From Escherichia phage inny, in the sequence record MN850601.1: 64,000 nucleotides of DNA; one strand, written 5' to 3'. A model generated the notes under the pieces. That model was given only the letters and a program-made list of their open reading frames with translations. It did no database searches and had not been told where the DNA came from. Position numbers and translations under genes: made by a program. Positions 42,886-55,110 of the stretch are shown here, piece by piece; within the stretch, counting starts at the first letter, position 1, and each line of letters begins with the position of its first letter.

Positions 42886-42899
42886 TTTTTATAGGTGTG

Positions 42900-43015
42900 T
42901 TAATGAGAATCATTTTCGTTTGTAAATGAGAATCATTATCATTTAACTATGTAAGTGATAATCATTCTCAGTAAGAGAATGAGAATCATTAGCAAATGAG
43001 AATTTTCTCATTTAG
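42900..43015. promoter_or_regulatory. cluster of five ATGAGAATCATT-type palindromic boxes (Fur-box-like)
   Basis: atgagaatcatt x2, gtgataatcattctca, aatgagaatcatt, aatgagaattttctcatt; ATGAGAATCATTATC matches 14/15 of the Fur consensus core. Confidence 0.45.
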
Positions 43016-43244
43016 AGAATAACGCGCAGGGGCGGTGTTTGTCTCGCGCTCCCGTGTCCCCTCGCCATACAATAAGAATAGCATAACCAACAACAAAAGC
43101 AAGCGATTATTTTTATCTTTACATTTCTTTACAAATTTATTTTAGACGAGCTACCGGCGATCAACCTTCCAACCAGTGCCCCCTGGTATGTTAGCCCCGC
43201 CTTTACGCCGTGGGGGTGGCGTTTCCTCTTCTGTATGTAAAACA

Positions 43245-43272
43245 GTATAAGCCCGATCCCTGGGCTTGTCAA
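43245..43272 (-). promoter_or_regulatory. orphan sigma70-like promoter (TTGACA-N17-TATACT) reading leftward into GC-rich non-coding DNA
   Basis: Reverse complement of tgtcaa...agtata; no ORF with plausible start downstream. Confidence 0.35.
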
Positions 43273-43274
43273 GA

Positions 43275-43541
43275 TTATTTTTTGTTTTCTTGCCAGGATA
43301 GGACACCTAACCAAAAATACATGTCGCCCCGCGCCCCTGGCGGGATCTTGCTTTCCCCGCCGCCACTACAAGCCCATAGATAACCATTAGCGAACGGATC
43401 AAAATGATCTATTTCTTCCACCTTATGATCGCCCAGGTTGAGAACGGTTTCAACCTTTAAGCCCGTTGCGCTTGCTACCTGGTGCACCGTGCCGCCTTGC
43501 CAGCCTAATGAGTGCATGAGGTGTAGAGTAGTATTTGTCAT
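43275..43541 (-). CDS. hypothetical protein
   Basis: 88 aa; led on minus strand by hairpin + CATCAAAGAAAGGG RBS like the rightward cassettes. Confidence 0.5.
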   Translation of the reverse strand: MTNTTLHLMHSLGWQGGTVHQVASATGLKVETVLNLGDHKVEEIDHFDPFANGYLWACSGGGESKIPPGARGDMYFWLGVLSWQENKK

Positions 43542-43544
43542 GGT

Positions 43545-43640
43545 ATCGCCCTTTCTTTGATGTGCGCCCTGGTTGGCGCGGTAGAAAGATAATAGCCCTT
43601 TCCTTTATAGATAGCAAGCAAAAAAAAGAAATGAAAAAAA
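43545..43640 (-). promoter_or_regulatory. promoter + stem-loop cassette (minus-strand copy)
   Basis: On minus strand: TTGCTT-N17-TATTAT, then hairpin GCGCC-N6-GGCGC, then ACATCAAAGAAAGGG. Confidence 0.4.
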
Positions 43641-43664
43641 GATTAAAAAAGGGGTTGACGTTCC

Positions 43665-43693
43665 TCACCTGGTAGCGTATTATTCATCTTGTC
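43665..43693 (+). promoter_or_regulatory. sigma70-like promoter (TTGACG-N17-TATTAT)
   Basis: Divergent from minus-strand cassette. Confidence 0.4.
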
Positions 43694-43810
43694 GAGGGGG
43701 GCGAGGCACAACGACAATAAACAAAAGGAGGGCGCAATGTAGGACGGGCAAAGGTGAGGATCTCCATAATCCACCGTCACAATAACATTACTTATAAAAG
43801 GTTGATAACG

Positions 43811-43906
43811 ATGATCAAGAAAGAAAACAGCTTGACGGTTGGAACGATTAACGCTATCATTCTTGCCGTTCCATTTTGGATTGTAGTTGCGGTTATTATT
43901 TTTTAA
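43811..43906 (+). CDS. tiny hydrophobic peptide (31 aa), speculative
   Basis: MIKKENSLTVGTINAIILAVPFWIVVAVIIF; weak SD. Confidence 0.25.
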   Translation: MIKKENSLTVGTINAIILAVPFWIVVAVIIF

Positions 43907-43914
43907 AAATATTC

Positions 43915-43970
43915 TTGACAACGTTTTTTAATCTGATAAGATGTATCACATAGGGCGGCAATAGTGCCGC
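43915..43970 (+). promoter_or_regulatory. early promoter + 5' stem-loop cassette
   Basis: TTGACA-N16-TAAGAT, then CATAGG + hairpin GCGGCA-ATAG-TGCCGC. Confidence 0.55.
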
Positions 43971-43994
43971 TCATAACAGAAGAGAGAAATAATC

Positions 43995-44267
43995 ATGGCA
44001 TCATATAGCGCATCAATGATCGTAATGGGCATCACTGGTAAACCTATGCGCGGTGGCGGATCTTTCGCTAACATCAATATTGATGGGCGTTTATCCCTGG
44101 ATGCAGCGATCACCGTGGCACGGGAAACATTTAAAAAAGAATGTAATTTCAATAAACAAGATTATCTCGGTTTCGCTATTGAAAAAACCGCGCGATTTGT
44201 GGATTATAAAAGCCCGAAAATGATCGACACTACACTAAAAGCGCAAGATGTAGCGTTTTTGCTTTAA
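43995..44267 (+). CDS. hypothetical protein
   Basis: 90 aa; follows cassette. Confidence 0.55.
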   Translation: MASYSASMIVMGITGKPMRGGGSFANINIDGRLSLDAAITVARETFKKECNFNKQDYLGFAIEKTARFVDYKSPKMIDTTLKAQDVAFLL

Positions 44268-44269
44268 GT

Positions 44270-44330
44270 CTTGACACTGAAAAATAATTTGGTAATATAT
44301 ACTCCATAAGGCGGGAAATGGTTTCCCGCC
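44270..44330 (+). promoter_or_regulatory. early promoter + 5' stem-loop cassette
   Basis: TTGACA-N16-TAATAT, hairpin GGCGGGAAA-TGG-TTTCCCGCC, then CATCAAAGAAAGGG. Confidence 0.55.
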
Positions 44331-44355
44331 AGGCCATCAAAGAAAGGGTAACACA

Positions 44356-44718
44356 ATGAGCAAGCAAATCAATACTATCATGTTAAACCTGGTATCTTTC
44401 CGCGACGACGTGAAAAATCTTCCACGTGATGCAGTGGATGCACGGATCGAAAGCTATCGCTCACAGATCGCAACGCTACCGCTAAAACGTGATCAACATG
44501 CCGCTAATATGATGCTTAATGCTATGCTTAAAAAGATGATTCAATGTGATCTTACCCTGGCTTATGAATATGCTGGCGATCTCTTTGTAACATATAGCAA
44601 GCCCGTACCAGGTATGAGCACAACGGAAGAATTGCATGCCTTAAATCTGCGACAAGATGCATGGGATAACATGCGCCGTGTTATGGTATGGGTAGAAAGC
44701 GGTAAAATTTACGAATAA
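44356..44718 (+). CDS. hypothetical protein
   Basis: 120 aa; follows cassette. Confidence 0.55.
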   Translation: MSKQINTIMLNLVSFRDDVKNLPRDAVDARIESYRSQIATLPLKRDQHAANMMLNAMLKKMIQCDLTLAYEYAGDLFVTYSKPVPGMSTTEELHALNLRQDAWDNMRRVMVWVESGKIYE

Positions 44719-44724
44719 AAACGG

Positions 44725-44778
44725 TTGACATTGCACTAAAACCTGATAAGCTATCTTAAAGCGGGAATAGTTCCCGCT
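44725..44778 (+). promoter_or_regulatory. early promoter + 5' stem-loop cassette
   Basis: TTGACA-N16-TAAGCT, hairpin GCGGGAA-TAG-TTCCCGC. Confidence 0.5.
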
Positions 44779-44796
44779 TACATAGGATAAAACTTT

Positions 44797-44943
44797 ATGA
44801 AACAATATGTAATGAGTATTCACACCAAAAACGGCGCTACTGTTACGACTCCGGCACGGTTTGCACTTGTAAACCGTTGCAAGAGACTAAAACGAGAGCT
44901 AAAAAACAACCGTGCAACGGGCTTTAAACGCTGGGGAGGATAA
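44797..44943 (+). CDS. small basic protein (about 48 aa)
   Basis: Below track cut-off; MKQYVMSIHTKNGATVTT...KRLKRELKNNRATGFKRWGG; coordinates approximate. Confidence 0.4.
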   Translation: MKQYVMSIHTKNGATVTTPARFALVNRCKRLKRELKNNRATGFKRWGG

Positions 44944-44945
44944 TC

Positions 44946-45206
44946 TTGTTTTTTCTAAAAGTTTTTGATAATGTGATCGCTTTTGAACATGCTACAACGT
45001 TCAACCTGGCGAGATACGCTATCAGGTTTAAAGATAATGTTTATCCCCGTGCTGGCGGCGGTTACACTATTTTTAATCATCGTAATGCGCAACTAACAGA
45101 TATAACGAATCCAGATCCTGGGGTGTATCGCATAGGCTGGCTACCGTCAAAAGACGCGGCAAGCATGTTTAAGGTATGTAAACTACTAACAGAAGAGGCG
45201 AACTAA
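44946..45206 (+). CDS. hypothetical protein (TTG start)
   Basis: 86 aa; GGAGGA 5 nt upstream of TTG, coupled to previous stop. Confidence 0.4.
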   Translation: MFFLKVFDNVIAFEHATTFNLARYAIRFKDNVYPRAGGGYTIFNHRNAQLTDITNPDPGVYRIGWLPSKDAASMFKVCKLLTEEAN

Positions 45207-45207
45207 C

Positions 45208-45762
45208 ATGGGGCGTGAATATGTGATCCAGTCCTGGGTAAAGCATGATGCTAATGATCCGCGCATAATACCAGATGACATGATCGATCACATGGTAGGA
45301 TATAGCGGGGAGCAGATAGGAAATCGAGCGGCAAAGAGCAACGGCAACACAAAGGCGCGATCCGTTCGCCCTGGTTGGCTGGCAAATGGTAACGCTGACA
45401 TTGCAAGCGCCGCAGATCCAAGCGATGACGCTAAAAATAATCCCTTATACAGCATTGATCCGGCTTTTAAGGTGTTAGAAGAGTATCCCGCTAAATTAGC
45501 CGCACTAGATAAGGCATACGAAGAAAAGCGCATGGCATGGACTGTATACAACACCGCTAAAATGGTGCTAGATGCAAAATTGATTAAAGCCCAGGAGAAG
45601 ATCAATAAACTTGTTGCAGTAGCGCAAGAGGAAGACCAGGACGACCAGGAGGAAGAGGAAGAAATCATGCCTACCCTGGAAGAGGAAGAGATCCAGCCAT
45701 ACATGCCGACGGAAGAGGAAAAAAGACAAGCCCTAAAAAATTATGAAAATTGTATTGTGTAA
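45208..45762 (+). CDS. hypothetical protein with strongly acidic C-terminal region
   Basis: 184 aa; QEEDQDDQEEEEEIMPTLEEEEIQPYMPTEEE. Confidence 0.55.
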   Translation: MGREYVIQSWVKHDANDPRIIPDDMIDHMVGYSGEQIGNRAAKSNGNTKARSVRPGWLANGNADIASAADPSDDAKNNPLYSIDPAFKVLEEYPAKLAALDKAYEEKRMAWTVYNTAKMVLDAKLIKAQEKINKLVAVAQEEDQDDQEEEEEIMPTLEEEEIQPYMPTEEEKRQALKNYENCIV

Positions 45763-45765
45763 GGC

Positions 45766-45871
45766 TTGACATATGCAAACAAGCCCCGTAATATGTACCA
45801 CATAAAGCGGGGCAACGCCCCATAAGGTGAAATAAAAAATCACTTGACACCTGAAATCAGTAAGCTATAAT
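45766..45871 (+). promoter_or_regulatory. tandem early promoters, first with stem-loop
   Basis: TTGACA-N17-TAATAT + hairpin GGGGC-AAC-GCCCC; then TTGACA-N16-TATAAT. Confidence 0.5.
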
Positions 45872-45908
45872 GCTTATATAGATTGAAACATTACTAAGGA
45901 ATAAAAGC

Positions 45909-46088
45909 ATGGCTATTATTGCAAATACTGAGATCGTAGGTTTAGATTCTATCATCCTGGCATATGAGGAAGCTATAGAAATGTATGTGGTTTCCTATGG
46001 TGATTATATCCGTGAATATAAATCTATTGATCTAGCTTTTGAATGTTATATTCGCCAGGTCAATAAAGCCTATGATGATTATCGTTAA
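45909..46088 (+). CDS. small hypothetical protein (59 aa)
   Basis: Below track cut-off; AAGGA upstream; MAIIANTEIVGLDSIILAYEEAIEMYV... Confidence 0.4.
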   Translation: MAIIANTEIVGLDSIILAYEEAIEMYVVSYGDYIREYKSIDLAFECYIRQVNKAYDDYR

Positions 46089-46107
46089 AAGTTTTAGTCT
46101 TGTGCTA

Positions 46108-46136
46108 TTGACAACGAACGATAGTACAAGCATAAT
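46108..46136 (+). promoter_or_regulatory. sigma70-like promoter (no stem-loop)
   Basis: TTGACA-N17-CATAAT. Confidence 0.4.
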
Positions 46137-46183
46137 AACTTTTATCGGGAATACTCCTAACTAATCAAAAGAGATTAAAGACT

Positions 46184-46549
46184 ATGGCTAAAAATATCAA
46201 TGTTTCTGCTTATGCTACCCTGGCTAACACTGCTAAAATTGAACTATCCAGCATTGAAGCGGTACATATTAGCGCCCGTCGCTGGTTTCAAAAGTCTTAT
46301 GGTAATACTTATTTCTCTTTGATGGTTGACGTTGAGATCGGCGGTAAACTGATTGAAGTCGTTAACGTTCCGTTTCAATATGGTTATGGTGATCATTTTG
46401 ATACCGTTGCCCTAGAAGAGTTTAGCAAGGTTATCAACCTGGAAGGTAAAGACTTTTCAAATTATGCTTACCTTTCCCGTTTTTGCCGTGACAATGGGAT
46501 CGCTGTATACAGTCATGCAAGCGATGTTAAACGTAAAAAAGATCTATAA
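46184..46549 (+). CDS. hypothetical protein
   Basis: 121 aa ORF. Confidence 0.55.
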   Translation: MAKNINVSAYATLANTAKIELSSIEAVHISARRWFQKSYGNTYFSLMVDVEIGGKLIEVVNVPFQYGYGDHFDTVALEEFSKVINLEGKDFSNYAYLSRFCRDNGIAVYSHASDVKRKKDL

Positions 46550-46555
46550 AAAGCA

Positions 46556-46612
46556 TTGACAACAGAAAGAAAAAGAGTAAACTGTATCACATCAGGACGG
46601 GGAACGGTTTCC
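46556..46612 (+). promoter_or_regulatory. early promoter + 5' stem-loop cassette
   Basis: TTGACA-N16-TAAACT, hairpin GGGGAA-CGGT-TTCCCC, then CTAACAAAGAGAG. Confidence 0.5.
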
Positions 46613-46638
46613 CCCTCCTAACAAAGAGAGAAATAAAA

Positions 46639-46821
46639 ATGGCTAAATGCACTATCTGTAAGAAAGAAATAGTATTAGTTCCAAGCGCCCGTGAACGTGC
46701 CGCTAAGTTCGGTGGCAAACCGTCAGACTATACGAAAATGTTTACTACCCATGCAGCTTGTCAGGTAGCAAAACGTTCACAAGAAAGCGTAGAATTAATG
46801 CGTAAACTTTCCAAAAAATAA
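46639..46821 (+). CDS. hypothetical protein
   Basis: 60 aa; follows cassette. Confidence 0.5.
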   Translation: MAKCTICKKEIVLVPSARERAAKFGGKPSDYTKMFTTHAACQVAKRSQESVELMRKLSKK

Positions 46822-46823
46822 TA

Positions 46824-46883
46824 TTGACAAAGTATTTTATTACTATATAATGGTTTACATCGAGAGCGGGAATAGTTCCCGCC
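46824..46883 (+). promoter_or_regulatory. early promoter + 5' stem-loop cassette
   Basis: TTGACA-N16-TATAAT, hairpin GCGGGAA-TAG-TTCCCGC. Confidence 0.55.
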
Positions 46884-46906
46884 TCACTGAAAAAGAGATT
46901 AACATC

Positions 46907-47146
46907 ATGGCTAAATCAAAAATGTTCTTAGGTCACAAAAATAAAACTCATTGGAATGTAAGCCTTTGGATCAACAACGATGAAGGTTTTTATAATCTTG
47001 CGCGTGAATTTATCGCAGCTAACACCAATAAGAATGACGCAGCGCGGGATATGATGTTATTCCTTGAAAGTATGGATCAAGATAAAACGCCAGACGGTTA
47101 CAAGTTCAGTAAAACTGCAATCCGTGCCGCTATGGTAGGAATGTAA
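46907..47146 (+). CDS. hypothetical protein
   Basis: Track ORF 46850..47146 trimmed to ATG after cassette (MAKSKMFLGH...). Confidence 0.5.
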   Translation: MAKSKMFLGHKNKTHWNVSLWINNDEGFYNLAREFIAANTNKNDAARDMMLFLESMDQDKTPDGYKFSKTAIRAAMVGM

Positions 47147-47155
47147 TAAAATAGC

Positions 47156-47216
47156 TTGACACTGTTTTTTATTCTGGTATAGTTTATCACATAGGGCGGG
47201 AAATGGTTTCCCGCCA
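47156..47216 (+). promoter_or_regulatory. early promoter + 5' stem-loop cassette
   Basis: TTGACA-N17-TATAGT, CATAGG + hairpin GGCGGGAAA-TGG-TTTCCCGCC, AAATCAAAGAAAGG. Confidence 0.55.
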
Positions 47217-47237
47217 AATCAAAGAAAGGTTATTATT

Positions 47238-47465
47238 ATGGCTATCGTTATTGTTCGCGTATCCGGTACGGTTGGAAGCTCCCAAGTAGTAGCAGTTATC
47301 ACCGAGAAGAAAGGGGATGATCTTCACTCTTCCTTGAATAGCTGGGCGGTCGCTAACTTCGGGCAATGGTCGAGCGTTGAGTACATCGAATCCTACCAGG
47401 TGCCAACGATTAGCCTAACAGATCTGAATGTTGATCGCTTGTTGTGCCTGGATGGATTAAACTAA
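47238..47465 (+). CDS. hypothetical protein
   Basis: 75 aa; follows cassette. Confidence 0.5.
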   Translation: MAIVIVRVSGTVGSSQVVAVITEKKGDDLHSSLNSWAVANFGQWSSVEYIESYQVPTISLTDLNVDRLLCLDGLN

Positions 47466-47473
47466 AAATAATC

Positions 47474-47530
47474 TTGACAAGATAACTAAAATCAGTAAAA
47501 TGTAATGCATAGGGCGGCAATAGTGCCGCT
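47474..47530 (+). promoter_or_regulatory. early promoter + 5' stem-loop cassette
   Basis: TTGACA-N16-TAAAAT, CATAGG + hairpin GCGGCA-ATAG-TGCCGC. Confidence 0.55.
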
Positions 47531-47552
47531 CATAGTAAGAGAGATTATCAAA

Positions 47553-47768
47553 ATGGCTAATATCCGCACACTGTTAAAAAATGCAAGTCAAGTTTTATTT
47601 TCAGATGACGAGTATTTCAACAAAGACATTACAGGCGTGAAAAATTTAAAAGACGTGAAGGATGTTATCGGTATCCGTGGATCTTTACGTAAAGGTGACA
47701 TATACGGTAACAAGGTGCAATATAAACTGTCAAAAGATTATGATTTTACTTTGACAATTATTTCATAA
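47553..47768 (+). CDS. hypothetical protein
   Basis: Track ORF 47505..47768 trimmed to ATG after cassette (MANIRTLL...). Confidence 0.5.
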   Translation: MANIRTLLKNASQVLFSDDEYFNKDITGVKNLKDVKDVIGIRGSLRKGDIYGNKVQYKLSKDYDFTLTIIS

Positions 47769-47774
47769 AACCGC

Positions 47775-47836
47775 TTGCAATACTGCAAAAATAAAGTAAA
47801 CTGTATTCATCAAGGCGGTGGAATAGCCCACCGCCT
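47775..47836 (+). promoter_or_regulatory. early promoter + 5' stem-loop cassette
   Basis: TTGCAA-N17-TAAACT, hairpin GGCGGTGG-AATAGC-CCACCGCC. Confidence 0.5.
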
Positions 47837-47859
47837 AACAAAGAGAAGAGGAAAACATC

Positions 47860-48030
47860 ATGATCACTTTCGCTACCCGTGAAGCCGCTCGCAACGTTGC
47901 ACGTAAAGTTAACGCCGCCAACCTGGGCGCTACGCTTAAAGCCCCGGTAAAAGATGAATCAGGTAAATGGATCTTCCCTGGTTTGCGTCACGCTGATAAG
48001 CTGGGAACGTTAACGTTAAAAAATAAATAA
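47860..48030 (+). CDS. small hypothetical protein (about 56 aa)
   Basis: Below track cut-off; MITFATREAARNVARKVNAANLGATLKAPVKDESGKW...; coordinates approximate. Confidence 0.4.
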   Translation: MITFATREAARNVARKVNAANLGATLKAPVKDESGKWIFPGLRHADKLGTLTLKNK

Positions 48031-48037
48031 TATCCGC

Positions 48038-48098
48038 TTGACAGTAGCATGATTTATAAGTAAAGTAACAACAACGGCGGGAAATGGTTTCCCGCCAT
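48038..48098 (+). promoter_or_regulatory. early promoter + 5' stem-loop cassette
   Basis: TTGACA-N17-TAAAGT, hairpin GGCGGGAAA-TGG-TTTCCCGCC. Confidence 0.55.
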
Positions 48099-48116
48099 CA
48101 ATAAAGAGATAAGATT

Positions 48117-48476
48117 ATGAAATCAGCAAAAGCAATTAAAACTTATATTGTGTCGGCTATTTCTTTTGAAGGTACTACAACCGAAAAAGAAAAGATCACC
48201 GAACTGATGCGCCGTTTTAACTCTGAATACTGGTATCCCGATAATCAAAAACGTTACAATTATAACGTGATCAAGGCGATAGCCTCATGGTTACAAGGTT
48301 TACCGTCAGAAATCAATATTGCTTTTGATTATAACGAGATCGATCACTTATTAATTGAATGGAAGTACATAAAAGAAACAAGCAAAGAAACAACCGTTAC
48401 CCGTGAGCGGGAAAATTATTGGTTATATATTGCAAGCATGATCGTAATCCTGGCAAAACAGCATAACGTGGCGTAA
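48117..48476 (+). CDS. hypothetical protein
   Basis: 119 aa; follows cassette. Confidence 0.55.
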   Translation: MKSAKAIKTYIVSAISFEGTTTEKEKITELMRRFNSEYWYPDNQKRYNYNVIKAIASWLQGLPSEINIAFDYNEIDHLLIEWKYIKETSKETTVTRERENYWLYIASMIVILAKQHNVA

Positions 48477-48490
48477 TTAAGAGGAAAAAC

Positions 48491-48628
48491 ATGAACGCAT
48501 CACAGCAGATCGAAAAATTCAACCGCAGCAAGGCGCGTAAAGATTGGAACGAAGAGATCACCAAAAAAGGCGACAAGCGGAACAAAACAAAGAGAGATCG
48601 CAGCACAAAAAGATACTGGAACGAATAA
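48491..48628 (+). CDS. small basic protein (about 45 aa)
   Basis: Below track cut-off; AAGAGGAAAAAC upstream; MNASQQIEKFNRSKARKDWNEEITKKGDKRNKTKRDR... Confidence 0.35.
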   Translation: MNASQQIEKFNRSKARKDWNEEITKKGDKRNKTKRDRSTKRYWNE

Positions 48629-48633
48629 CAAAA

Positions 48634-48656
48634 AAGGGCGCTTATTGCGCCCTTTT
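48634..48656 (+). terminator. rho-independent terminator
   Basis: AAGGGCGC-TTAT-TGCGCCCTTTT. Confidence 0.6.
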
Positions 48657-48746
48657 AGCTTATATAGAGGCTTGTTACCCATAGGCAATGGTAACGCCAG
48701 GATAAGCCTATAAACCACGTTAGACAGCTTTACAGGAGCTTTAAAA

Positions 48747-48929
48747 ATGAAATTAGAAGAAATAAGCAAGGCACTAGCCCAGGGGCAAAGGTTAAACGCC
48801 CGTTATCGTGATCAATATGGCTTCATAACCAGCGGCGTGATCCTGGGGATTGAAGGCAATAAGATTTTTATTGACACGTTGAAAAACGTTGTATATAGTG
48901 ACAATATAATCTCAATAAAACATATATGA
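48747..48929 (+). CDS. hypothetical protein
   Basis: 60 aa; AGGAG SD. Confidence 0.45.
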   Translation: MKLEEISKALAQGQRLNARYRDQYGFITSGVILGIEGNKIFIDTLKNVVYSDNIISIKHI

Positions 48930-48937
48930 GGCAAGAA

Positions 48938-49339: not shown

Positions 49340-49364
49340 CAACATAGAAAGCACGTTATAAGAT
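49336..49364 (+). promoter_or_regulatory. sigma70-like promoter (no stem-loop)
   Basis: TTGACA-N17-TAAGAT. Confidence 0.4.
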
Positions 49365-49386
49365 ACACACAACAAAGGAGAACTAC

Positions 49387-49689
49387 ATGAACGGCATAGC
49401 TAAAACGTTTTTTCTTTTTTCTGGTGTAAATGATCCATCAATAAAAGTCGATAGTGTAAAAGAAAACAATACTATCACCGCTAAATTGTTTCAAGATGAA
49501 ACAAATAACGTGCTAATCATTAATCTTAAAGAAATAACGAAAGGTTATTGTACTATTGCTTACCATGCAATCTATCATGCTGGTACTAGTGAGGAAGTGC
49601 AAACAAGCAACAACGAAAGCGCGGCGCTACCTGGTGATCTGGTGCTGGGCGTTATCAGTTTAATTGTCAATGATTTTTTTAAGGAGTAA
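49387..49689 (+). CDS. hypothetical protein
   Basis: 100 aa; AAAGGAG SD. Confidence 0.55.
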   Translation: MNGIAKTFFLFSGVNDPSIKVDSVKENNTITAKLFQDETNNVLIINLKEITKGYCTIAYHAIYHAGTSEEVQTSNNESAALPGDLVLGVISLIVNDFFKE

Positions 49690-49693
49690 AACC

Positions 49694-49789
49694 ATGCCCT
49701 ATTTACATTTATTTTTCGGGATCTTATTGTCAGGATCTTTTTTCTTCTGTATACTTGTTTCTATTGTAAACCACGTTTTAAGACATTAA
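49694..49789 (+). CDS. tiny hydrophobic peptide (31 aa), speculative
   Basis: AAGGAG SD; MPYLHLFFGILLSGSFFFCILVSIVNHVLRH. Confidence 0.25.
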   Translation: MPYLHLFFGILLSGSFFFCILVSIVNHVLRH

Positions 49790-49798
49790 GGAAACAAC

Positions 49799-49918
49799 AT
49801 GAAAATTATTCCCGTACAGTATAGCGTAATAAATCCAGCATATGAGGAAGGAAGGAAAACAAGCATGGTTTTATGTTATATTGCTACTATAGCCATGTTG
49901 TTATATATTGTGTTTTAA
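49799..49918 (+). CDS. tiny membrane peptide (39 aa), speculative
   Basis: MKIIPVQYSVINPAYEEGRKTSMVLCYIATIAMLLYIVF. Confidence 0.25.
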   Translation: MKIIPVQYSVINPAYEEGRKTSMVLCYIATIAMLLYIVF

Positions 49919-49947
49919 TAGGTTTTATAGTTGTACGCTTTAAAGGC

Positions 49948-49975
49948 TTGACAATTTTTTGTTATGCTTTAAAAT
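49948..49975 (+). promoter_or_regulatory. sigma70-like promoter (no stem-loop)
   Basis: TTGACA-N16-TAAAAT. Confidence 0.4.
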
Positions 49976-50018
49976 ATATCTTGAAAACGGCAAAGGCCGC
50001 AAACAAAAGGGTAAAATT

Positions 50019-50342
50019 ATGAAATCTGTGATAGGTGTTTATTTGGATAACTCTGATTTTTTCTATCATCGCGCGCGTTTACTTGATGCTATTGAAATGA
50101 TAGAATCAGGCTTTAAAGAGTATCGCCTTGCACATGATGACCTGGAAGCATTACAGGGCAATAGTGTTTTTACATTGCAAGCGAAAGCACTATGCAAAAG
50201 CCGGATCGAGATTGCGAGCAAAAAGATAGAACGCGGCATGTCCTGGTTGCGCACCGCAGAAATCAACATGGGGCAATGGTACGGCGAAAACTTAGAAAAT
50301 AAACATACTTTTGTCAATGTAGAAAATATTGAAGATTATTGA
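50019..50342 (+). CDS. hypothetical protein
   Basis: Track ORF 49959..50342 trimmed to ATG (MKSVIGVY...). Confidence 0.5.
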   Translation: MKSVIGVYLDNSDFFYHRARLLDAIEMIESGFKEYRLAHDDLEALQGNSVFTLQAKALCKSRIEIASKKIERGMSWLRTAEINMGQWYGENLENKHTFVNVENIEDY

Positions 50343-50343
50343 T

Positions 50344-50406
50344 TGACAGCACACCGAACGGGTAGTATATTGTATCTCATAGAGCGGGGAAATGGTTTCC
50401 CCGCCT
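50344..50406 (+). promoter_or_regulatory. early promoter + 5' stem-loop cassette
   Basis: TTGACA-N17-TATATT, CATAGAG + hairpin GCGGGGAAA-TGG-TTTCCCCGC. Confidence 0.55.
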
Positions 50407-50424
50407 TAAAAGAAGAGATAAGCT

Positions 50425-50709
50425 ATGAAGATCACAAAAGCACTTTCCAACTATGCAGCACGTCGCGGCTTATGTTTAACCGTTGAAAACTTAGGGAAAG
50501 AAGATTTTTTGTGCTTTTGGGAGCTTGAGAATGATAATGAGTGGATCTTCTCTTATTCTATCTGCGAAGATCAAAACGGTTGTTTATTAACCTGGCGCGG
50601 TAATATCTATCTACCGGAAGAAATCAAAGAAGAATTACCAGGCACGATCATGACTGAGAAACAGCTTAAGGAAGTGATTAATTTTGTAGGGCAAAACATT
50701 AAAAAATAA
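50425..50709 (+). CDS. hypothetical protein
   Basis: 94 aa; follows cassette. Confidence 0.55.
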   Translation: MKITKALSNYAARRGLCLTVENLGKEDFLCFWELENDNEWIFSYSICEDQNGCLLTWRGNIYLPEEIKEELPGTIMTEKQLKEVINFVGQNIKK

Positions 50710-50710
50710 T

Positions 50711-50771
50711 TTGACACTAGGCAAACAACGTAGTAAAGTTTATCACATAGGGCGGCAATAGTGCCGCTCAT
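50711..50771 (+). promoter_or_regulatory. early promoter + 5' stem-loop cassette
   Basis: TTGACA-N17-TAAAGT, CATAGG + hairpin GCGGCA-ATAG-TGCCGC (near-identical to 43915 and 47474 copies). Confidence 0.55.
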
Positions 50772-50790
50772 AACAGAAGAGAAACAAATC

Positions 50791-50961
50791 ATGATCCCGA
50801 CTATGTTTTATGTATCGCGCAAAGGTCACAATATTTTTTGGTCTGAAGATTTAAATGAAGCCATGACGTTTGCCCGTGATCGTGTAGCTATCGGTGGCGT
50901 TAACATCACCGTAACCGATGAAAACGGCATTGAATACTATAACGGCGACGATGAAGAGTAA
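50791..50961 (+). CDS. hypothetical protein
   Basis: Track ORF 50761..50961 trimmed to ATG after cassette (MIPTMFYVSRKGHN...). Confidence 0.45.
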   Translation: MIPTMFYVSRKGHNIFWSEDLNEAMTFARDRVAIGGVNITVTDENGIEYYNGDDEE

Positions 50962-50965
50962 TTAA

Positions 50966-50992
50966 TGAGGCGGGGGAGTATTCCCCGCCGTC
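50966..50992 (+). promoter_or_regulatory. 5' stem-loop without obvious own promoter
   Basis: GGCGGGG-N-CCCCGCC hairpin then GTCAATAAAGAGG before ATG of 51009. Confidence 0.4.
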
Positions 50993-51008
50993 AATAAAGA
51001 GGTAAATC

Positions 51009-51278
51009 ATGAAAATATCTTTGGACGTTGCAATCAAGGCCATCGAATCCGGTTACACCCTGGTAAAAGATGATAAGGCTAAAACCGTGCACCACGTTAA
51101 CAAGGAAACAGGCGAAAGCATGATCACATATAAAGCCGCCTACTTTCTCCAATCAGTAGCAGATCCGCGCGTACAACGCCAGGTTACGGCGGCTATTGCT
51201 AAAAAATTATGTGCTTTACAGGGTACAAGTTTTAACGAGATCGCCCCGTGTTTTGACTGGTCGAGCTTGAAAAAATAG
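51009..51278 (+). CDS. hypothetical protein
   Basis: 89 aa ORF. Confidence 0.55.
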   Translation: MKISLDVAIKAIESGYTLVKDDKAKTVHHVNKETGESMITYKAAYFLQSVADPRVQRQVTAAIAKKLCALQGTSFNEIAPCFDWSSLKK

Positions 51279-51280
51279 TT

Positions 51281-51340
51281 TGACAATACGCGGTTATCTG
51301 GTAAAGTGTACGACATAGGGCGGGGCAATAAGGCAACGCC
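51281..51340 (+). promoter_or_regulatory. early promoter + 5' stem-loop cassette
   Basis: TTGACA-N16-TAAAGT, CATAGG + GC-rich hairpin (GGGCGGGGCAATAAGGCAACGCCC). Confidence 0.5.
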
Positions 51341-51360
51341 CATTAATGAGGGTAGAATCA

Positions 51361-51465
51361 TGTTAGAGAAAATTTTCACGGTTGTAGTAGTGGGCCTGGC
51401 GTTATCGGTTGGAGTGGTTGCAACTATGGCTAACATGATCCTATCTTCCCACGGTATTGGATAAG
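51361..51465 (+). CDS. tiny membrane peptide (about 34 aa), speculative
   Basis: MLEKIFTVVVVGLALSVGVVATMANMILSSHGIG; coordinates approximate. Confidence 0.3.
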
Positions 51466-51474
51466 GTGAATCAA

Positions 51475-51690
51475 ATGATCACGAATAAGACAGGTAAAAC
51501 GGAATTCTTGCGCGGCTTGCAAATAGGTAAACCTGAGATCTGGCATTGCACTAAATCCGCGCATAATGAAATGAAAGATTTTACCGCTACTTTACAACGT
51601 GTTAAAATATCTATCACGCAGAAAAAAGCCTTGTTAGTAGTAGAAAACGAGATACCGCAAACCATTATTATTGTCGAGCGTACAGCATGA
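51475..51690 (+). CDS. hypothetical protein
   Basis: Track ORF 51457..51690 trimmed to first ATG (MITNKTGK...). Confidence 0.45.
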   Translation: MITNKTGKTEFLRGLQIGKPEIWHCTKSAHNEMKDFTATLQRVKISITQKKALLVVENEIPQTIIIVERTA

Positions 51691-52073
51691 AAACTGAAAT
51701 CATTATTGAAATCATCAACGGTTATAAAGAAGCCTTTATTTTTGCTGAATCAGCCAGGGATCATGAAGGTAATTTTATAGATGACATGACTGATCATGAG
51801 TTTTCAGATCAAGCCCATCAGCGGATCATACATGACGTGGCGGCGTTTTGTGATGCCAATGATGCCGCTATCTCTGAGGCAATGAGCGACGGCGCTACAG
51901 CAAACCAGATCGGGAATGACTTACATTTCACCCGTAACGGTCACGGTGTAGGCTTTTGGGATCGCCCTGAAATATACACTACTAACACCGCCAACCGCCT
52001 AACAAATGCAGCTAAATTAATGCCATCGGTGCATGCTTACATTGGTGAAGATAATTTGATTTATATTGAATAA
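51687..52073 (+). CDS. hypothetical protein
   Basis: 128 aa; start overlaps previous stop. Confidence 0.55.
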   Translation: MKTEIIIEIINGYKEAFIFAESARDHEGNFIDDMTDHEFSDQAHQRIIHDVAAFCDANDAAISEAMSDGATANQIGNDLHFTRNGHGVGFWDRPEIYTTNTANRLTNAAKLMPSVHAYIGEDNLIYIE

Positions 52074-52079
52074 AAAGTA

Positions 52080-52137
52080 TTGACACCGATCCCCAATATG
52101 GTACTATTTACCACGTAGGCGGGAAGTGGTTTCCCGC
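52080..52137 (+). promoter_or_regulatory. early promoter + 5' stem-loop cassette
   Basis: TTGACA-N16-TACTAT, hairpin GGCGGGAAG-TGG-TTTCCCGCC. Confidence 0.5.
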
Positions 52138-52161
52138 CAGGTAATCAAAAAGGTAAATACT

Positions 52162-52551
52162 ATGCGCAACCTGGTTTCTGTTTCTAACGTTGAAAAATTT
52201 CAATCTTTACAGGGTATCGTTAACAACGTAGCGCCTTTTTTAGTCAACGGCTTGATTGCAAAGATGAAAAATAAACATCATGCGGCATGGTCTGCTTACT
52301 GCTTTGATAATGATGAAAAAGCGGCTGAAATGATGTTAAATATGCTGTTAGACAGTGTAGAATCATCTTTACCGGAAAACATCGCAGAAGAGATCACCTA
52401 TCGTTATAATATGGCGATCACTTACCAGGAGGTTGCGCAATTCAACATGATGGATGATGACGAACAACAGGATCAGGAAATGTTTTGGGAGTATGCAGAT
52501 CGTCAATCGGCTTTTGATGAAAAATTAGCGATGTATTATAACGAATATTAA
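52162..52551 (+). CDS. hypothetical acidic protein
   Basis: Track ORF 52126..52551 trimmed to ATG (MRNLVSVS...); acidic MMDDDEQQDQEMFWEY. Confidence 0.55.
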   Translation: MRNLVSVSNVEKFQSLQGIVNNVAPFLVNGLIAKMKNKHHAAWSAYCFDNDEKAAEMMLNMLLDSVESSLPENIAEEITYRYNMAITYQEVAQFNMMDDDEQQDQEMFWEYADRQSAFDEKLAMYYNEY

Positions 52552-52566
52552 TACACGGTAAAAGAA

Positions 52567-52592
52567 AGGGGCGCACTAAGCGCCCTTTTTTG
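52567..52592 (+). terminator. rho-independent terminator
   Basis: GGGGCGC-ACTAA-GCGCCCTTTTTTG. Confidence 0.6.
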
Positions 52593-52936
52593 TATTCTTT
52601 TTTCACGATGGAAGTAACACGTAAAGAATAGGCGTAAAGGTGGCGTAAAACAGCCTAAAACCGATTATAACCGCTTAAACAAGGTAATAATGATTAATCA
52701 CCTTGCCAGGATGAAAAAGCTGTTATAAAGCTATTTAGAGCGTTTAAAGCACATAGGAAATAATTTGCTTTTTATCTTGCCTTTTATCCTGCTTTTGATT
52801 ATTATTATGGAACGGGCGGCACCTGGGAGCAGGGGAAGATAATCACCGGACGATCTTATTATATATTGATAGCTTCCACCTATCAAATAACAAAACATCA
52901 AAGAAATAAACTATCAAATCTTTACAATTCTACCTA

Positions 52937-52996
52937 TTGACACCGGATCGCCCTTATACTAAGATGTATCACGTAAGGCGGGAAGTGGTTTCCCGC
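52937..52996 (+). promoter_or_regulatory. early promoter + 5' stem-loop cassette
   Basis: TTGACA-N17-TAAGAT, hairpin GGCGGGAAG-TGG-TTTCCCGC. Confidence 0.55.
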
Positions 52997-53015
52997 TCAA
53001 TATAGGAATCATATC

Positions 53016-53246
53016 ATGATCGAACAAATTAAACGCGCTGAAGCTATTAACGGCAATGTGATCTATTCTGTCAGCAATAACGAAAAAGGCGTACCCTATG
53101 CAGCGGTGATAGTACAGCCTGACGGTGATTATTGGTTTACTGTATACGGATCTTATTCTTTTGGGCGTCCAGTACATGATAAAATTTTGAAAGTAGCTAA
53201 TCCCACTGGGAAGAATATCACAGTAGAAAAATTTTTTGAAAAATAA
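53016..53246 (+). CDS. hypothetical protein
   Basis: 76 aa; follows cassette. Confidence 0.5.
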   Translation: MIEQIKRAEAINGNVIYSVSNNEKGVPYAAVIVQPDGDYWFTVYGSYSFGRPVHDKILKVANPTGKNITVEKFFEK

Positions 53247-53321
53247 CTTGCTTTATAGCCTCTGTTAACTTATAGTTATCGTGTAGGGCAAATCATTTTA
53301 AACGGTAAACGAGGAATCACC

Positions 53322-53705
53322 ATGAGCAATATCATCAACCTGGCGGCTACTGTAAACGGTAAAGATTTTAACGGCGCTGTAGATCGTGATCCTATGTGGT
53401 GCTTATCAGTGTTTAAAGGTGACTTGGTTGAAGTTAGAACAACCGAAGGGTATAGCGATGATTATAAATGCGAGATCCATTTACATAACTGGTACACGGG
53501 TAAAACTTATGCGCTGAATCACGCGTTTATCGGGAAAATTGAATATCGCGAGATGATCGACGAAGAAACGGGGCAAGATTTTAGCCAGCATGTTTATATT
53601 CGTTCCGAAACATTAGCCGAACGTTTGATCGAGAAAATGAAAGCAAAAAATAAAATTAATTTATCTCATTGGATTGATATAACAAACGATCCGGCTTATA
53701 AGTAA
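53322..53705 (+). CDS. hypothetical protein
   Basis: 127 aa; GAGGAA SD. Confidence 0.55.
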   Translation: MSNIINLAATVNGKDFNGAVDRDPMWCLSVFKGDLVEVRTTEGYSDDYKCEIHLHNWYTGKTYALNHAFIGKIEYREMIDEETGQDFSQHVYIRSETLAERLIEKMKAKNKINLSHWIDITNDPAYK

Positions 53706-53719
53706 ATAACATTTCACAC

Positions 53720-53748
53720 CAGGGCGCACAAAGCGCCCTTTCTTTTTA
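53720..53748 (+). terminator. rho-independent terminator
   Basis: GGGCGC-ACAAA-GCGCCCTTTCTTTTT. Confidence 0.55.
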
Positions 53749-53951
53749 CCTAAAGAAAGATGATAGCTTTTACCTATCAAAAACGTTCACCGAAAAAAGT
53801 GAATAGATCGCGGTATCGAGCTAATCAAGGAGCAGATGAACAACCATACCATGAAGATCATAAGGCGCTTACAACGTGTTTTAGACCGCTTATTTTTAAT
53901 TTCTTCATGCAACTATCTGGCAAAAACAGCCTTTTTCTTGTCTTTCCCCTT

Positions 53952-54025
53952 AAATGATAATCATTCTTATCTATAGCTGATTATTTATGCAATAAATTGC
54001 ATAATGCAATAATGATAATCATTCC
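53952..54025. promoter_or_regulatory. two Fur-box-like palindromes
   Basis: AAATGATAATCATTCTTATC and ATAATGATAATCATTC against consensus GATAATGATAATCATTATC. Confidence 0.45.
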
Positions 54026-54319
54026 TAACTTAAGACCATCTAACCTATAAAATAATAAGTTATCTAACTAAATTAAAACTAATTATCTCACTTTTATTTA
54101 TAACTTACTGTTACTATCTCATTGATAACATTGTATTAAACAACAATAACTAATATAAATCATTACTAAGCTAAATATAATCTATCTAACCCTTAAAACT
54201 ACAATTATAATCTATCGAATTGTTGCACAAAGTAACTATTAAATTGTTAGTAACATTACTAAATAATTCACATCCTATCTATTTATGATCTAATCTTTAC
54301 CTTCCTATCTATTACTTAG

Positions 54320-54371
54320 ATAATCATTTCATACAGTAACCATTTCATGTAGTAATCATTCCATACAATAA
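54320..54371. repeat. three tandem ~17-bp iteron-like repeats
   Basis: taatcatttcatacagtaac / catttcatgtagtaat / cattccatacaataac. Confidence 0.6.
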
Positions 54372-54503
54372 CTATAACAAGAAATATAATTCGCAAGCGT
54401 ATCATTAGCAGCCTATGCCGGACACATAGGCGGCTAATAATAACGCAACTACACACCCCACATAATAACCATCACCGATAGTCATTATTTGTGCTTATGT
54501 AGC

Positions 54504-54563
54504 TTGCAACAACTGCAAGCGCAACAATATACAATTGTATATTGTATCCCTTACATTGTTGCG
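54504..54563. repeat. nested inverted repeats around a perfect 20-bp palindrome
   Basis: TTGCA-ACAAC-TGCAA; GCAACAAT ... ATTGTTGC flanking CAATATACAATTGTATATTG. Confidence 0.6.
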
Positions 54564-54892
54564 GTGCGTTATTATTAGCTAATGTTTAGAACATTGGCTA
54601 TAATATAAGCTAAATAATAAGCTATACAATAATAAACATCGTGAATAATGATGCTGATGATCATAATGCGCCACCTTCCAGGGGGCGCTATGTGAACACA
54701 AAGAAATCTTTCTTGTCAAGAAAAATATTAACACTATTGCGCAAAATTATTTATATATGAATAGATGGTTTTTCATACTATTGTTATTATTTATCGGGCA
54801 TAGTTATAGCCTATTTGTTGAGCCTACTCTTTTAAAAGCGCAATAAAGTAGAATTATCTTGATTTTTAGTCGGTTTTATAGTACAGAAAGTA

Positions 54893-54915
54893 TGCAAATG
54901 ATAATCATTATCAAC
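54893..54915. promoter_or_regulatory. near-consensus Fur-box-like palindrome
   Basis: AAATGATAATCATTATC matches 16/17 of Fur consensus TAATGATAATCATTATC. Confidence 0.5.
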
Positions 54916-55078
54916 TATCTTCCACGGGTGGCACTATTTCACGCCAGATCATTTCATTTGGCAAGGTGTATATAGATGTTTAGACTTGCCAAGCCATTGA
55001 TTTACTTAGAATTTATCTGTTTTGTTGTGAGTAGTACCTTTCTTGCTCAGAAAATAATCAAAAGTCTTATAAGTCATT

Positions 55079-55110
55079 GAATGATAATGCAAATGATAAT
55101 TATTCTCATT
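55079..55110. promoter_or_regulatory. tandem Fur-box-like half-sites
   Basis: GAATGATAATGCAAATGATAATTATTCTCATT. Confidence 0.4.

Follow-up and report, generated by a model that had tools for sequence, protein, structure and literature searches.

Two non-coding regions in the genome of Escherichia phage inny (MN850601.1) hold clusters of palindromes that resemble the Fur boxes of enterobacterial iron-uptake promoters. This raises the question of whether a strictly virulent myovirus of the phAPEC8/rV5 type carries operators for a regulator of its host and, if so, which phage process they might serve. The window analysed here is a stretch of 64,000 nucleotides, to which all positions refer; the two regions are termed gap 1 and gap 2.

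Fur-type boxes in two non-coding gaps

A first-pass annotation had pointed out near-consensus Fur-box-like palindromes, and all the sequences it quoted lie where it placed them or within 1-2 nt: AAATGATAATCATTATC at 54896-54912, ATAATGATAATCATTC at 54009-54024, AAATGATAATCATTCTTATC at 53952-53971 and ATGAGAATCATTATC at 42926-42940, with more copies at 42899-43015 and 55083-55113. The individual sites are given below, with scores from a position weight matrix (PWM) derived from 17 authentic Fur boxes in promoters of E. coli K-12.

42899-42923: gap-1 tandem array, Fur-type box 1, GTTAATGAGAATCATTTTCGTTTGT; 21.0 bits on the + strand, 14.1 bits in an overlapping - strand register
42922-42946: Fur-type box 2, GTAAATGAGAATCATTATCATTTAA; 22.7 and 16.7 bits
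42951-42975: Fur-type box 3, GTAAGTGATAATCATTCTCAGTAAG; 16.9 and 11.9 bits
42975-42999: Fur-type box 4, GAGAATGAGAATCATTAGCAAATGA; 16.6 and 11.2 bits
42992-43020, + strand: proximal degenerate box GCAAATGAGAATTTTCTCATTTA, followed by an invariant GAAT (within GAGAAT, 43015-43020), as seen in alignments
53950-53974: gap-2 Fur-type box TTAAATGATAATCATTCTTATCTAT; 16.4 bits (positional ortholog in phAPEC8/ZCKP1, 18.9 bits)
54008-54026: gap-2 Fur-type box AATAATGATAATCATTCCT, weakened here; 12.9 bits (18.6 bits in muut, ESCO8 and EmilieFrey)
54894-54918: best Fur-type box of the window, GCAAATGATAATCATTATC, with 2 mismatches to the 19-bp consensus; 25.0 bits (positional ortholog in phAPEC8, 17.3 bits)
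55083-55113: composite gap-2 site GATAATGCAAATGATAATTATTCTCATTGAT with three overlapping registers; 12.9, 21.7 (at 55089) and 16.7 bits (positional ortholog in phAPEC8/ZCKP1, 18.3 bits)

Seven sites in the window reach at least 16 bits (16.4-25.0 bits), and all seven fall within the two gaps. Host Fur boxes scored by leave-one-out yield a median of 12.2 and a maximum of 19.9 bits, a maximum surpassed by four of the phage sites; mismatches to the 19-mer Fur consensus number 2-5 in phage and 2-8 in host sites. The consensus derived from 51 distinct phage sites, AAATGAGAAT-N-ATTCTCATT, contains a perfect 7-1-7 core, TGAGAATNATTCTCA, and the sites display the 7-1-7 inverted repeat or NATWAT-hexamer array, with opposite-strand matches paired at i and i+6 throughout, i.e., in overlapping registers 6 bp apart. 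The half-site ATTCTCA is common to the phage motif and the host ryhB, fhuA and fecI boxes. Moreover, the exact phage palindrome is present at at least 120 bacterial loci, and 7 of the 11 Pfam-identifiable ORFs flanking it there belong to iron-uptake classes (a TonB-dependent receptor, a FecI-type sigma factor, a Peripla_BP_2 protein, an ABC ATPase, an Fe2+ transport protein and two FbpA-like binding proteins).

The density of the palindromes had been considered unlikely by chance, and the counts bear this out. The core AATGATAATCATT, with at most 2 mismatches, occurs 29 times in the window, compared to 6.3 +/- 2.5 times (maximum 15) in 100 dinucleotide-preserving shuffles; likewise, first-order Markov simulations of the window predict 0.17 sites of at least 16 bits (maximum 2) where seven are found. 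Control DNA from E. coli (79.5 kb) has no site of 14 bits or more besides the training sites, and in the complete genome of the relative EmilieFrey (146.7 kb) all sites of at least 16 bits are confined to the same two gaps. PWM scores, 7-1-7 architecture, genome-wide restriction to non-coding DNA, the deep positional conservation described below and the flanking iron genes in bacteria thus strongly support the view, already held in the first-pass annotation, that these sequences are Fur-type boxes.

Conservation of the boxes and of an adjoining element

Gap-1 modules were compared across Stephanstirmvirinae and Vequintavirinae infecting Escherichia, Klebsiella, Salmonella, Cronobacter, Serratia and Pectobacterium. 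Each of the 24 modules contains one to five boxes located 186-295 bp from an invariant core, and the interval from the proximal box to the invariant GAAT is free of indels in all of them. Many Vequintavirinae possess a single composite box in gap 1. Box 1 scores 17.7-19.3 bits in relatives, and box 2 is identical in muut, ESCO8 and EmilieFrey. In the lineage of the window, a 1-nt deletion has damaged the centre of the proximal box; a relative (L016/L038) retains a 17.7-bit box at this position. Iterons specific to individual lineages flank the gap-1 boxes on their left side.

Gap 2 spans 1.7 kb of AT-rich non-coding DNA with plentiful repeats and palindromes, and the GenBank records of many relatives open inside it. 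Three of its boxes keep their position between genera, where the flanks are 70-76% identical or unalignable. The nearest ORF lies 100-800 bp from the gap-2 boxes, and the main early promoter (55405-55433) is approximately 300 bp away. When close relatives are compared, conservation of the boxes does not clearly exceed that of the flanks (fraction of variable columns in boxes vs flanks: 0.113 vs 0.053 in gap 1, 0.053 vs 0.114 in gap 2), and the substitutions hit degenerate motif positions, namely heptamer position 4 (T/G) and the central N.

Chance AT-rich palindromes in AT-rich non-coding DNA might be invoked, given that both gaps have a GC content of only 32% and that Fur boxes look like -10 hexamers. 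Yet, none of 1000 simulations with the local composition of each gap reached the observed number of boxes, and the sites are kept across two subfamilies despite diverging flanks. The simulations, along with the conservation across subfamilies and of position in gap 2, refute a chance origin, to which we assign a negligible probability. The Fur-type sites are ancient; their maintenance by selection is part of the explanation by host Fur operators, to which we give an even chance as a whole.

Directly right of the gap-1 array lies a nearly invariant element of about 210 bp (43024-43233), which comprises the following parts:

43024-43066: GC-rich hairpin domain right of the boxes, variable in sequence, with the structure formed in every lineage
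43117-43136: two TCTTTACA direct repeats in 10-bp phase, kept in all lineages according to the alignment
43148-43233, + strand: nearly invariant core with GCTACCGGCGATCAACCTTCC, hairpin 1 (43172-43187), helix 2 (43188-43222) and a U/C-rich tail

The GC-rich domain folds with -8.6 to -18.6 kcal/mol, depending on the lineage, and prefers neither strand. The core features about 60 invariant columns in an alignment of 20 lineages. Its predicted pairs are formed in 94% of the alignment cells, compared to 34-53% if the 3' partners are slid; its covariation score was reached by 0 of 500 shuffles, and changes in the hairpins are compensatory. Helix 2 reaches 99% paired cells on the + strand vs 71% on the - strand, and the + strand version is more stable in 19 of 19 lineages. 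A covariance model of the core finds one copy in the window (127.6 bits), and the fold stability of the whole transcript is ordinary (z = +0.6). Searches of Rfam gave no match at gathering thresholds or in sensitive mode, E. coli genomes contained no copy, and significant complementarity of the element to RyhB was not found. As judged from these folding models, the element behaves like a structured + strand RNA with a terminator-like end helix.

Candidate promoters and proposed control by host Fur

In the lineage of the window, the pair GCAAAT-N17-GAGAAT extends across the proximal box and represents a candidate + strand promoter. The orthologous box of Vequintavirinae reads TTGAAT-N18-cAGAAT; its left hexamer is TTGAAT instead of the palindromic GCAAAT and fits the requirement for a -35 element. 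Since the box itself imposes the N18 spacing, this distance does not constitute independent evidence for a promoter, and the -10-like hexamer of some lineages (CTGAAT, CGGAAT) is devoid of the key A at position 2, making the promoter weak by consensus. A further promoter-like sequence is located at the far end of the element:

43244-43272, - strand: sigma-70-like promoter TTGACA-17-TATACT, with 11 of 12 consensus matches

This promoter is directed into the conserved element, and the gene at 43541..43275 has its terminator hairpin in the promoter spacer, which it makes up. The hairpin covaries, the -10 hexamer remains TAnnnT in nine lineages, and a homing-endonuclease cassette in L045 brings along a second - strand promoter unit. 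The strong, conserved promoter and the second unit point to - strand transcription across the element, and hence the direction of transcription is ambiguous despite the + strand helix.

Three roles had been suggested for the palindromes. We disfavour operators of a phage repressor that has a specificity like that of Fur, for reasons given below, where titration of Fur is also discussed. A coupling to host iron fits best, since the proximal box is locked beside a conserved RNA-like element. Our preferred reading, which we hold to be about evenly balanced between right and wrong, is that the boxes are functional operators for host Fur, which would render local transcription in the early region of these phages iron-responsive. 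Fur binding, the existence of the promoter, the transcribed strand, the role of the RNA and the physiological output are each predictions from sequence in this scheme. With iron plentiful in the host, dimers of Fe2+-Fur would bind the 7-1-7 cores and probably polymerise over the five-box array (42899-43015) and over the three or four sites at 53950-55113. Bound Fur would then act on transcription units that begin in the sites or cross them, either by occluding RNA polymerase or by blocking its progress; once iron becomes limiting, Fur would leave the sites. The most obvious candidate target is the structured element of about 210 nt (43024-43233). In most lineages, a -35/-10-like pair (TTGAAT-N18-cAGAAT) is aimed into it, and the spacer of this pair is taken up by the proximal box. 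The - strand promoter at the far end would generate an antisense transcript, and Fur could set the balance between the two transcripts. The lineage of the window carries its four strong boxes upstream of the putative promoter, not on it, and such a placement more often goes with activation or anti-silencing than with occlusion. The clusters suggest that large lytic phages sense how much iron is available in the infected cell. In the literature searched, we found no earlier report of these phage sites as Fur operators or of Fur binding to them.

Alternative roles and related systems

The boxes might instead act as a decoy that titrates holo-Fur as phage DNA reaches hundreds of copies. Similar to a multicopy Fur box in FURTA, this would derepress the iron-uptake regulon of the host and feed iron-dependent enzymes of the phage, which by annotation encodes class I and class III ribonucleotide reductases. 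About 8-10 sites per genome with a predicted affinity that is very high and exceeds that of native operators, the variation from one to five boxes per array among lineages, the distance of the gap-2 sites from ORFs and similar clusters in unrelated T5-like phages are all compatible with such a sponge. However, a decoy does not need the indel-free position of the proximal box relative to the element seen in 24 of 24 modules, and many Vequintavirinae have but the single composite gap-1 box. Fur is an abundant protein with several thousand copies per cell, and titration would thus come late in infection. On balance, we deem this role unlikely. The same low probability is assigned to a recruitment of Fur for architecture or DNA transactions rather than transcription control, for instance as a pause or anchor for the entering genome, as an origin or packaging landmark, or in anti-silencing of H-NS-bound AT-rich DNA as at ftnA. 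The position of the boxes of T5 and its relatives (in T5, direct repeat C and palindromes E, G, H and I) at the untranslated end of the terminal repeat, by the 7.9% nick and first-step-transfer boundary, would suit this idea, as would the repeat-filled gap 2 with its record ends, the iterons in gap 1 and the upstream location of the four strong boxes in this lineage. Yet, neither gap of the window contains a DnaA box (TTWTNCACA), unlike T5 with its ordered DnaA boxes, the GC skew merely tracks gene orientation, and we know of no system in which Fur is tied to DNA entry or replication.

Less probable still is a role of the palindromes as operators for a DNA-binding protein of the phage with a specificity that happens to resemble that of Fur. 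At 21 bp with AAA/TTT flanks, the phage consensus slightly exceeds the 19-bp Fur box in length, and it favours G at heptamer position 4; moreover, the annotation of the adjacent early block includes several small putative transcription factors. However, a tblastn search with E. coli Fur detected no homolog in the window or in the complete EmilieFrey genome (best E-value 3.7), and GAGAAT/ATTCTC variants are ordinary in native E. coli boxes. Furthermore, the identical palindrome clusters in unrelated T5-like phages and flanks iron-uptake genes in diverse bacteria.

Regulation by host Fur, our preferred reading, can be set beside known systems. Boxes in iron-uptake promoters of Enterobacterales (fhuF, fecI, cirA, ryhB, entC) share the sequence, the 7-1-7/hexamer-array layout and the 6-bp registers, and the phage sites score equal to or above these operators with a matrix built from them. 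In contrast to the chromosomal boxes, those of the phage reside in large non-coding regions of a virulent genome, form arrays of up to five and adjoin no iron-related gene. A Fur box beside a short conserved structured non-coding element with a terminator-like end helix recalls the genes of the Fur-repressed small RNAs RyhB of E. coli and PrrF of Pseudomonas, but the phage element is longer (about 210 nt), lacks sequence or Rfam similarity to them, and its strand and 5' end are putative. At E. coli ftnA, an upstream Fur array antagonises H-NS silencing. The four strong boxes upstream of a promoter in AT-rich DNA resemble this arrangement, whereas most other phage lineages have a single box overlapping the promoter-like pair.

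Fur boxes also occur on temperate phages, such as at stx1 of Shiga-toxin phages. Another example is the sitABCD operon of lambdoid coliphages (PMC6969025). Both are host Fur operators on phage DNA, but they govern cargo (moron) genes that serve the lysogen, and not conserved early control regions of a virulent phage itself.

T5-like phages harbour clusters of the same boxes. In T5, motif matches of up to 21.5 bits cluster in a long conserved untranslated region of this likewise large virulent enterobacterial phage and coincide with features annotated merely as direct repeat C and palindromes E, G, H and I. Repeat Region 3, the injection-stop region (10.1101/866236), encompasses direct repeat C along with palindromes E-I, and the T5 literature consulted ascribes its function to DnaA boxes, with Fur unmentioned. 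Arrays of host Fur operators might constitute a shared, unrecognised control module of the rV5/phAPEC8 supergroup and T5-like phages that serves as an iron checkpoint at the start of infection; we regard this as a speculative and rather improbable proposal. If true, the rV5/phAPEC8 module would gate a conserved non-coding RNA, and direct repeat C and palindromes E-I of T5 would be Fur boxes within the long-unexplained first-step-transfer/injection-stop region. The family of T5 is unrelated, and the T5 boxes differ from those described here by lying inside the terminal repeat, next to the first-step-transfer boundary.

Fur-type boxes in two gaps of the early region

The 14 kb around the boxes are 96-97% identical to ESCO8, muut, EmilieFrey and other Escherichia phages of the genus Justusliebigvirus (Stephanstirmvirinae), which are virulent myoviruses of ~146 kb and kin to phAPEC8 and, more distantly, rV5. 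Three records termed “Campylobacter phage” (MG065645, MG065689, MG065656) share ~94-95% identity with this coliphage over 14 kb; probably, their hosts were mislabelled or the cultures contaminated. The first-pass annotation had reported clusters of near-consensus Fur-box-like palindromes in two places, which correspond to the early region's two large non-coding gaps; between them lies a ~10-kb run of small plus-strand genes. The EmilieFrey annotation suggests that the gene following gap 2 may start ~55 nt later.

Gaps and Fur-type sites in the window (bits, score on a weight matrix from E. coli K-12 Fur boxes)
42463-43275: gap 1, between a plus-strand NADAR-domain gene and a lone minus-strand gene of 88 aa
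42899-42993: tandem gap-1 sites of 21.0, 22.7, 16.9 and 16.6 bits, spaced by 23, 29 and 24 bp
53706-55413 or slightly beyond: gap 2, after a terminator at 53721-53739
53950: gap-2 site, 16.4 bits
54008: gap-2 site, 12.9 bits
54894: gap-2 site, 25.0 bits
55089: gap-2 site, 21.7 bits

All box sequences quoted by the first-pass annotation were found at their places, and the density it considered unlikely by chance is borne out: allowing two mismatches at most, the palindromic core is found 29 times versus 6.3 times in shuffled sequence, and seven sites reach at least 16 bits, compared to 0.17 expected from simulated background. Local-composition simulations of each gap never attained the observed counts (0 of 1000). 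The matrix was built from 17 Fur boxes in 11 E. coli K-12 chromosome stretches (14 classic Fur-regulated promoter regions), and upon leave-one-out scoring these host boxes show a median of 12.2 and a maximum of 19.9 bits. The training boxes were chosen from known Fur-regulated promoters as those closest to the consensus, which implies some circularity; yet, this concern is limited by the leave-one-out scores and by a clean negative control, 79.5 kb of E. coli DNA without any site of at least 14 bits beyond the training sites. In the complete EmilieFrey genome, sites of at least 16 bits are confined to the same two gaps. A weaker Fur-like site (GTTAATGCAAACCTTTCTC, 14.6 bits) at 61504-61522, outside both gaps and probably inside a gene, also occurs in EmilieFrey at 96843.

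The palindrome derived from 51 distinct phage sites, AAATGAGAAT-N-ATTCTCATT, contains the core TGAGAAT-N-ATTCTCA, a perfect 7-1-7 unit as recognised by a single Fur dimer. In the phage boxes, two registers are offset by 6 bp, as is characteristic of the classical 19-bp box, and the hexamer variants GCAAAT, GAGAAT and ATTCTC are each present in the native E. coli boxes extracted. As an independent test, bacterial genomes were searched for the exact palindrome AATGAGAATNATTCTCATT, which turned up at no fewer than 120 bacterial loci. Iron-uptake classes account for seven of the 11 adjoining ORFs nameable by Pfam (a TonB-dependent receptor, a FecI-type ECF sigma factor, a siderophore-type periplasmic binding protein, an ABC ATPase, an Fe2+ transport protein and two FbpA-like binding proteins), and therefore, the palindrome is a Fur operator in bacteria, where Fur boxes are textbook elements of iron regulation. 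None of the ArgR, PurR, Zur, FNR and CRP box patterns fits the motif, as judged in an informal comparison. Matrix scores, motif form, bacterial iron-gene context and conservation together lend good support, at the level of sequence, to the proposed identity of the palindromes as Fur boxes.

Conservation of the boxes and variation around them

Gap-1 modules were collected from GenBank relatives and IMG/VR contigs, including phAPEC8, Klebsiella phages phi1_175008 and KB57, Salmonella KE22, Cronobacter EspYZU14, Serratia Kashira, Pectobacterium phiTE, Av-05 and others. Strong boxes, one to five per module, are present in each of the 24 distinct modules, 186-295 bp from the invariant core of a conserved element to their right. 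As identity between the neighbouring proteins of these phages is no more than 35-78%, the boxes have been retained for a long time, and judging from the modules compared, Fur-type boxes rank with the most conserved non-coding features of this lytic phage group. Footprinting of close relatives (four to five genomes) did not place the boxes clearly above their flanks. The module L045, a candidate for a box-less one, was discarded as such, as an HNH homing endonuclease splits its element and an intact box lies further left. The 197-aa endonuclease gene (PHROG 953; L045 6420-7013, minus strand) is inserted between ...CCGGCGAT and CCACCTTCC... of the element.

Further left of the boxes, gap 1 is lineage-specific. 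The window carries three ~70-bp direct repeats at 42661-42881, left of the Fur array, each with TTATTTAAAGTTTTT and the palindrome-like TTGAAAATGAAAAGTTCAA, and phiTE (L032 1080-1250) has six GGGTCTCGATC iterons in the same place. Moreover, a motif, AAAGGGGTGTG, recurs at 42480-42500, 55225-55245 and 55300-55320; at least the copy at 42480 is preceded by a TATAAAAA-like stretch. This motif may represent some signal, for instance a promoter specific to the phage.

Three gap-2 boxes have positional orthologs in Phapecoctavirus (phAPEC8, ZCKP1), while the rest of this gap is 70-76% identical or unalignable. The homologous large gap of Vequintavirinae contains several boxes, mostly 100-800 bp from any ORF, which is why we rejected the idea that they act as operators immediately before small early genes. 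In the window, the following gene block has its best sigma-70 match at 55405-55433, ~300 bp right of the last gap-2 box. Gap 2 also holds a number of repeats:

54321-54384: 16-bp tandem repeats (TAATCATTTCATACAG-like)
54433-54447 and 54565-54579: perfect 15-nt inverted repeat, 117 bp apart
54514-54555: palindrome with 21-nt arms

For many relatives, the GenBank record begins or ends within gap 2, possibly a sign of a genome terminus or origin. Origin signatures were not apparent, as DnaA boxes are absent from either gap and the cumulative GC skew tracks gene orientation only.

A conserved RNA-like element beside the gap-1 boxes

Rightward from the boxes, all lineages share an invariant GAAT, a GC-rich hairpin that is variable in sequence but always formed, two direct repeats and a core of ~85 nt with about 60 invariant columns.

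43024-43233: conserved element of ~210 bp (core, 43148-43233)
43117-43136: two TCTTTACA direct repeats in 10-bp phase, in all lineages between GC-rich hairpin and core
43272-43244, minus strand: strong, near-consensus sigma-70-like promoter (TTGACA-17-TATACT), pointing into the element from the other side

The TCTTTACA repeats presumably resemble protein sites of the response-regulator type. Within the core, the pairing of hairpin 1 is kept in differing sequences (ACCAG/CUGGU, ACC.GGCG/CGCC.GGU, GCCG/CGGC, ACCAGGU/GCCUGGU). An explicit core structure yields 94% paired cells compared to 34-53% with the partners slid, and its covariation score is reached by no shuffle. Helix 2, which is terminator-like, never varies and hence provides no covariation evidence; it includes three fixed G.U pairs and one U.G/C.G switch, its cells are paired to 99% on the plus strand versus 71% on the minus strand, and in 19 of 19 lineages it is stabler on the plus strand, by 6.4 kcal/mol. 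A U/C-rich tail follows the helix. The stability of the whole transcript has a z-score of +0.6, and therefore, only the local helices are supported. The element is probably a new phage non-coding RNA, near-invariant across Stephanstirmvirinae and Vequintavirinae.

No Rfam family matched the element, either at gathering thresholds or in sensitive mode, no tRNAs were detected, and a search for copies of the element in E. coli genomes was negative. A covariance model finds the single gap-1 copy in the window, and thus no core paralogs beside the gap-2 boxes. An anti-RyhB or RyhB-mimic function was dismissed, as 33% of shuffles match the duplex energy with RyhB, and so was a link to the pseudo-ToxI locus of phiTE, which lies elsewhere in that genome (~106.7 kb).

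The box nearest to the element (42992..43020 in the window) reads TTGAAT-GATAATCATTCTCATTTG-cAGAAT in Vequintavirinae. In its left hexamer, the palindrome gives way to a closer match with the -35 consensus; the 7-1-7 core occupies the 18-bp spacer before a -10-like hexamer that contains the invariant GAAT, the same geometry as in classical Fur repression. A plus-strand RNA of ~210 nt would start from this candidate promoter and end at helix 2. However, some lineages have no A at position 2 of the -10 hexamer, the box itself dictates the spacing, and the window's lineage has a 1-nt deletion in this box, with four strong boxes upstream of the putative promoter. On the opposite strand, the -10 of the promoter at 43272-43244 stays TAnnnT in nine lineages, and its 17-bp spacer is the covarying terminator hairpin of the upstream gene (43541..43275). 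The endonuclease cassette of L045 also points to minus-strand transcription, as it adds a second unit (TTGACA-hairpin-CATAAT) oriented like the native minus-strand one. Given these weaknesses and the strong minus-strand promoter, the element may be transcribed from both strands. No transcriptome of the rV5/phAPEC8 supergroup was found in the literature.

T5-like phages and the putative role of the boxes

Among viral contigs, too, the palindrome is common, and the complete isolate genomes of 108-121 kb that carry it are T5-like phages. Here, four to six strong boxes are clustered within 500-700 bp at the untranslated inner end of the terminal repeat.

~9149-9670: box cluster of chee24 (L173/L289); further clusters in the T5-like sequences L211, L213, L227, L236 and L237
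9468-9637: T5 (AY587007), annotated direct repeat C copies 1-4 and palindromes E, G, H and I, scoring up to 21.5 bits

The T5 boxes lie just left of the 7.9% nick, the first-step-transfer boundary. A detailed preprint on this region does not mention Fur or iron (10.1101/866236).

Most likely, with about even odds in our estimation from sequence, the boxes would make local transcription responsive to iron, with the conserved RNA-like element as the foremost candidate target. Possibly, the boxes instead titrate Fur, play an architectural role or are bound by a phage-encoded protein. The occurrence of one motif in two unrelated phage families argues for a host reader over a phage-encoded one; tblastn with E. 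coli Fur detected no homolog in the window or the complete EmilieFrey genome.

To our knowledge, Fur boxes on phages are known only before cargo genes of temperate phages, whereas the boxes described here are found on strictly lytic, broad-host-range, therapy-relevant phages. The literature on Fur boxes in these phages yielded only the sitABCD operon of lambdoid phages, with a Fur box in its upstream region (PMC6969025). If Fur binds, these lytic phages would sense or manipulate the iron status of the host, and they could perform differently in the body than in rich laboratory media; both the gut and infected tissue are iron-limited. The boxes also provide a candidate explanation, cheaply testable, for the unexplained injection-stop repeats of T5, and they draw attention to what looks like a new conserved phage non-coding RNA-like element. 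An unrelated viral contig (IMGVR_UViG_3300042896_000600; L240 1810-1888) contains three identical copies of CTGAATGAGAATCATTCTCATTTG in tandem, spaced by 30 bp.
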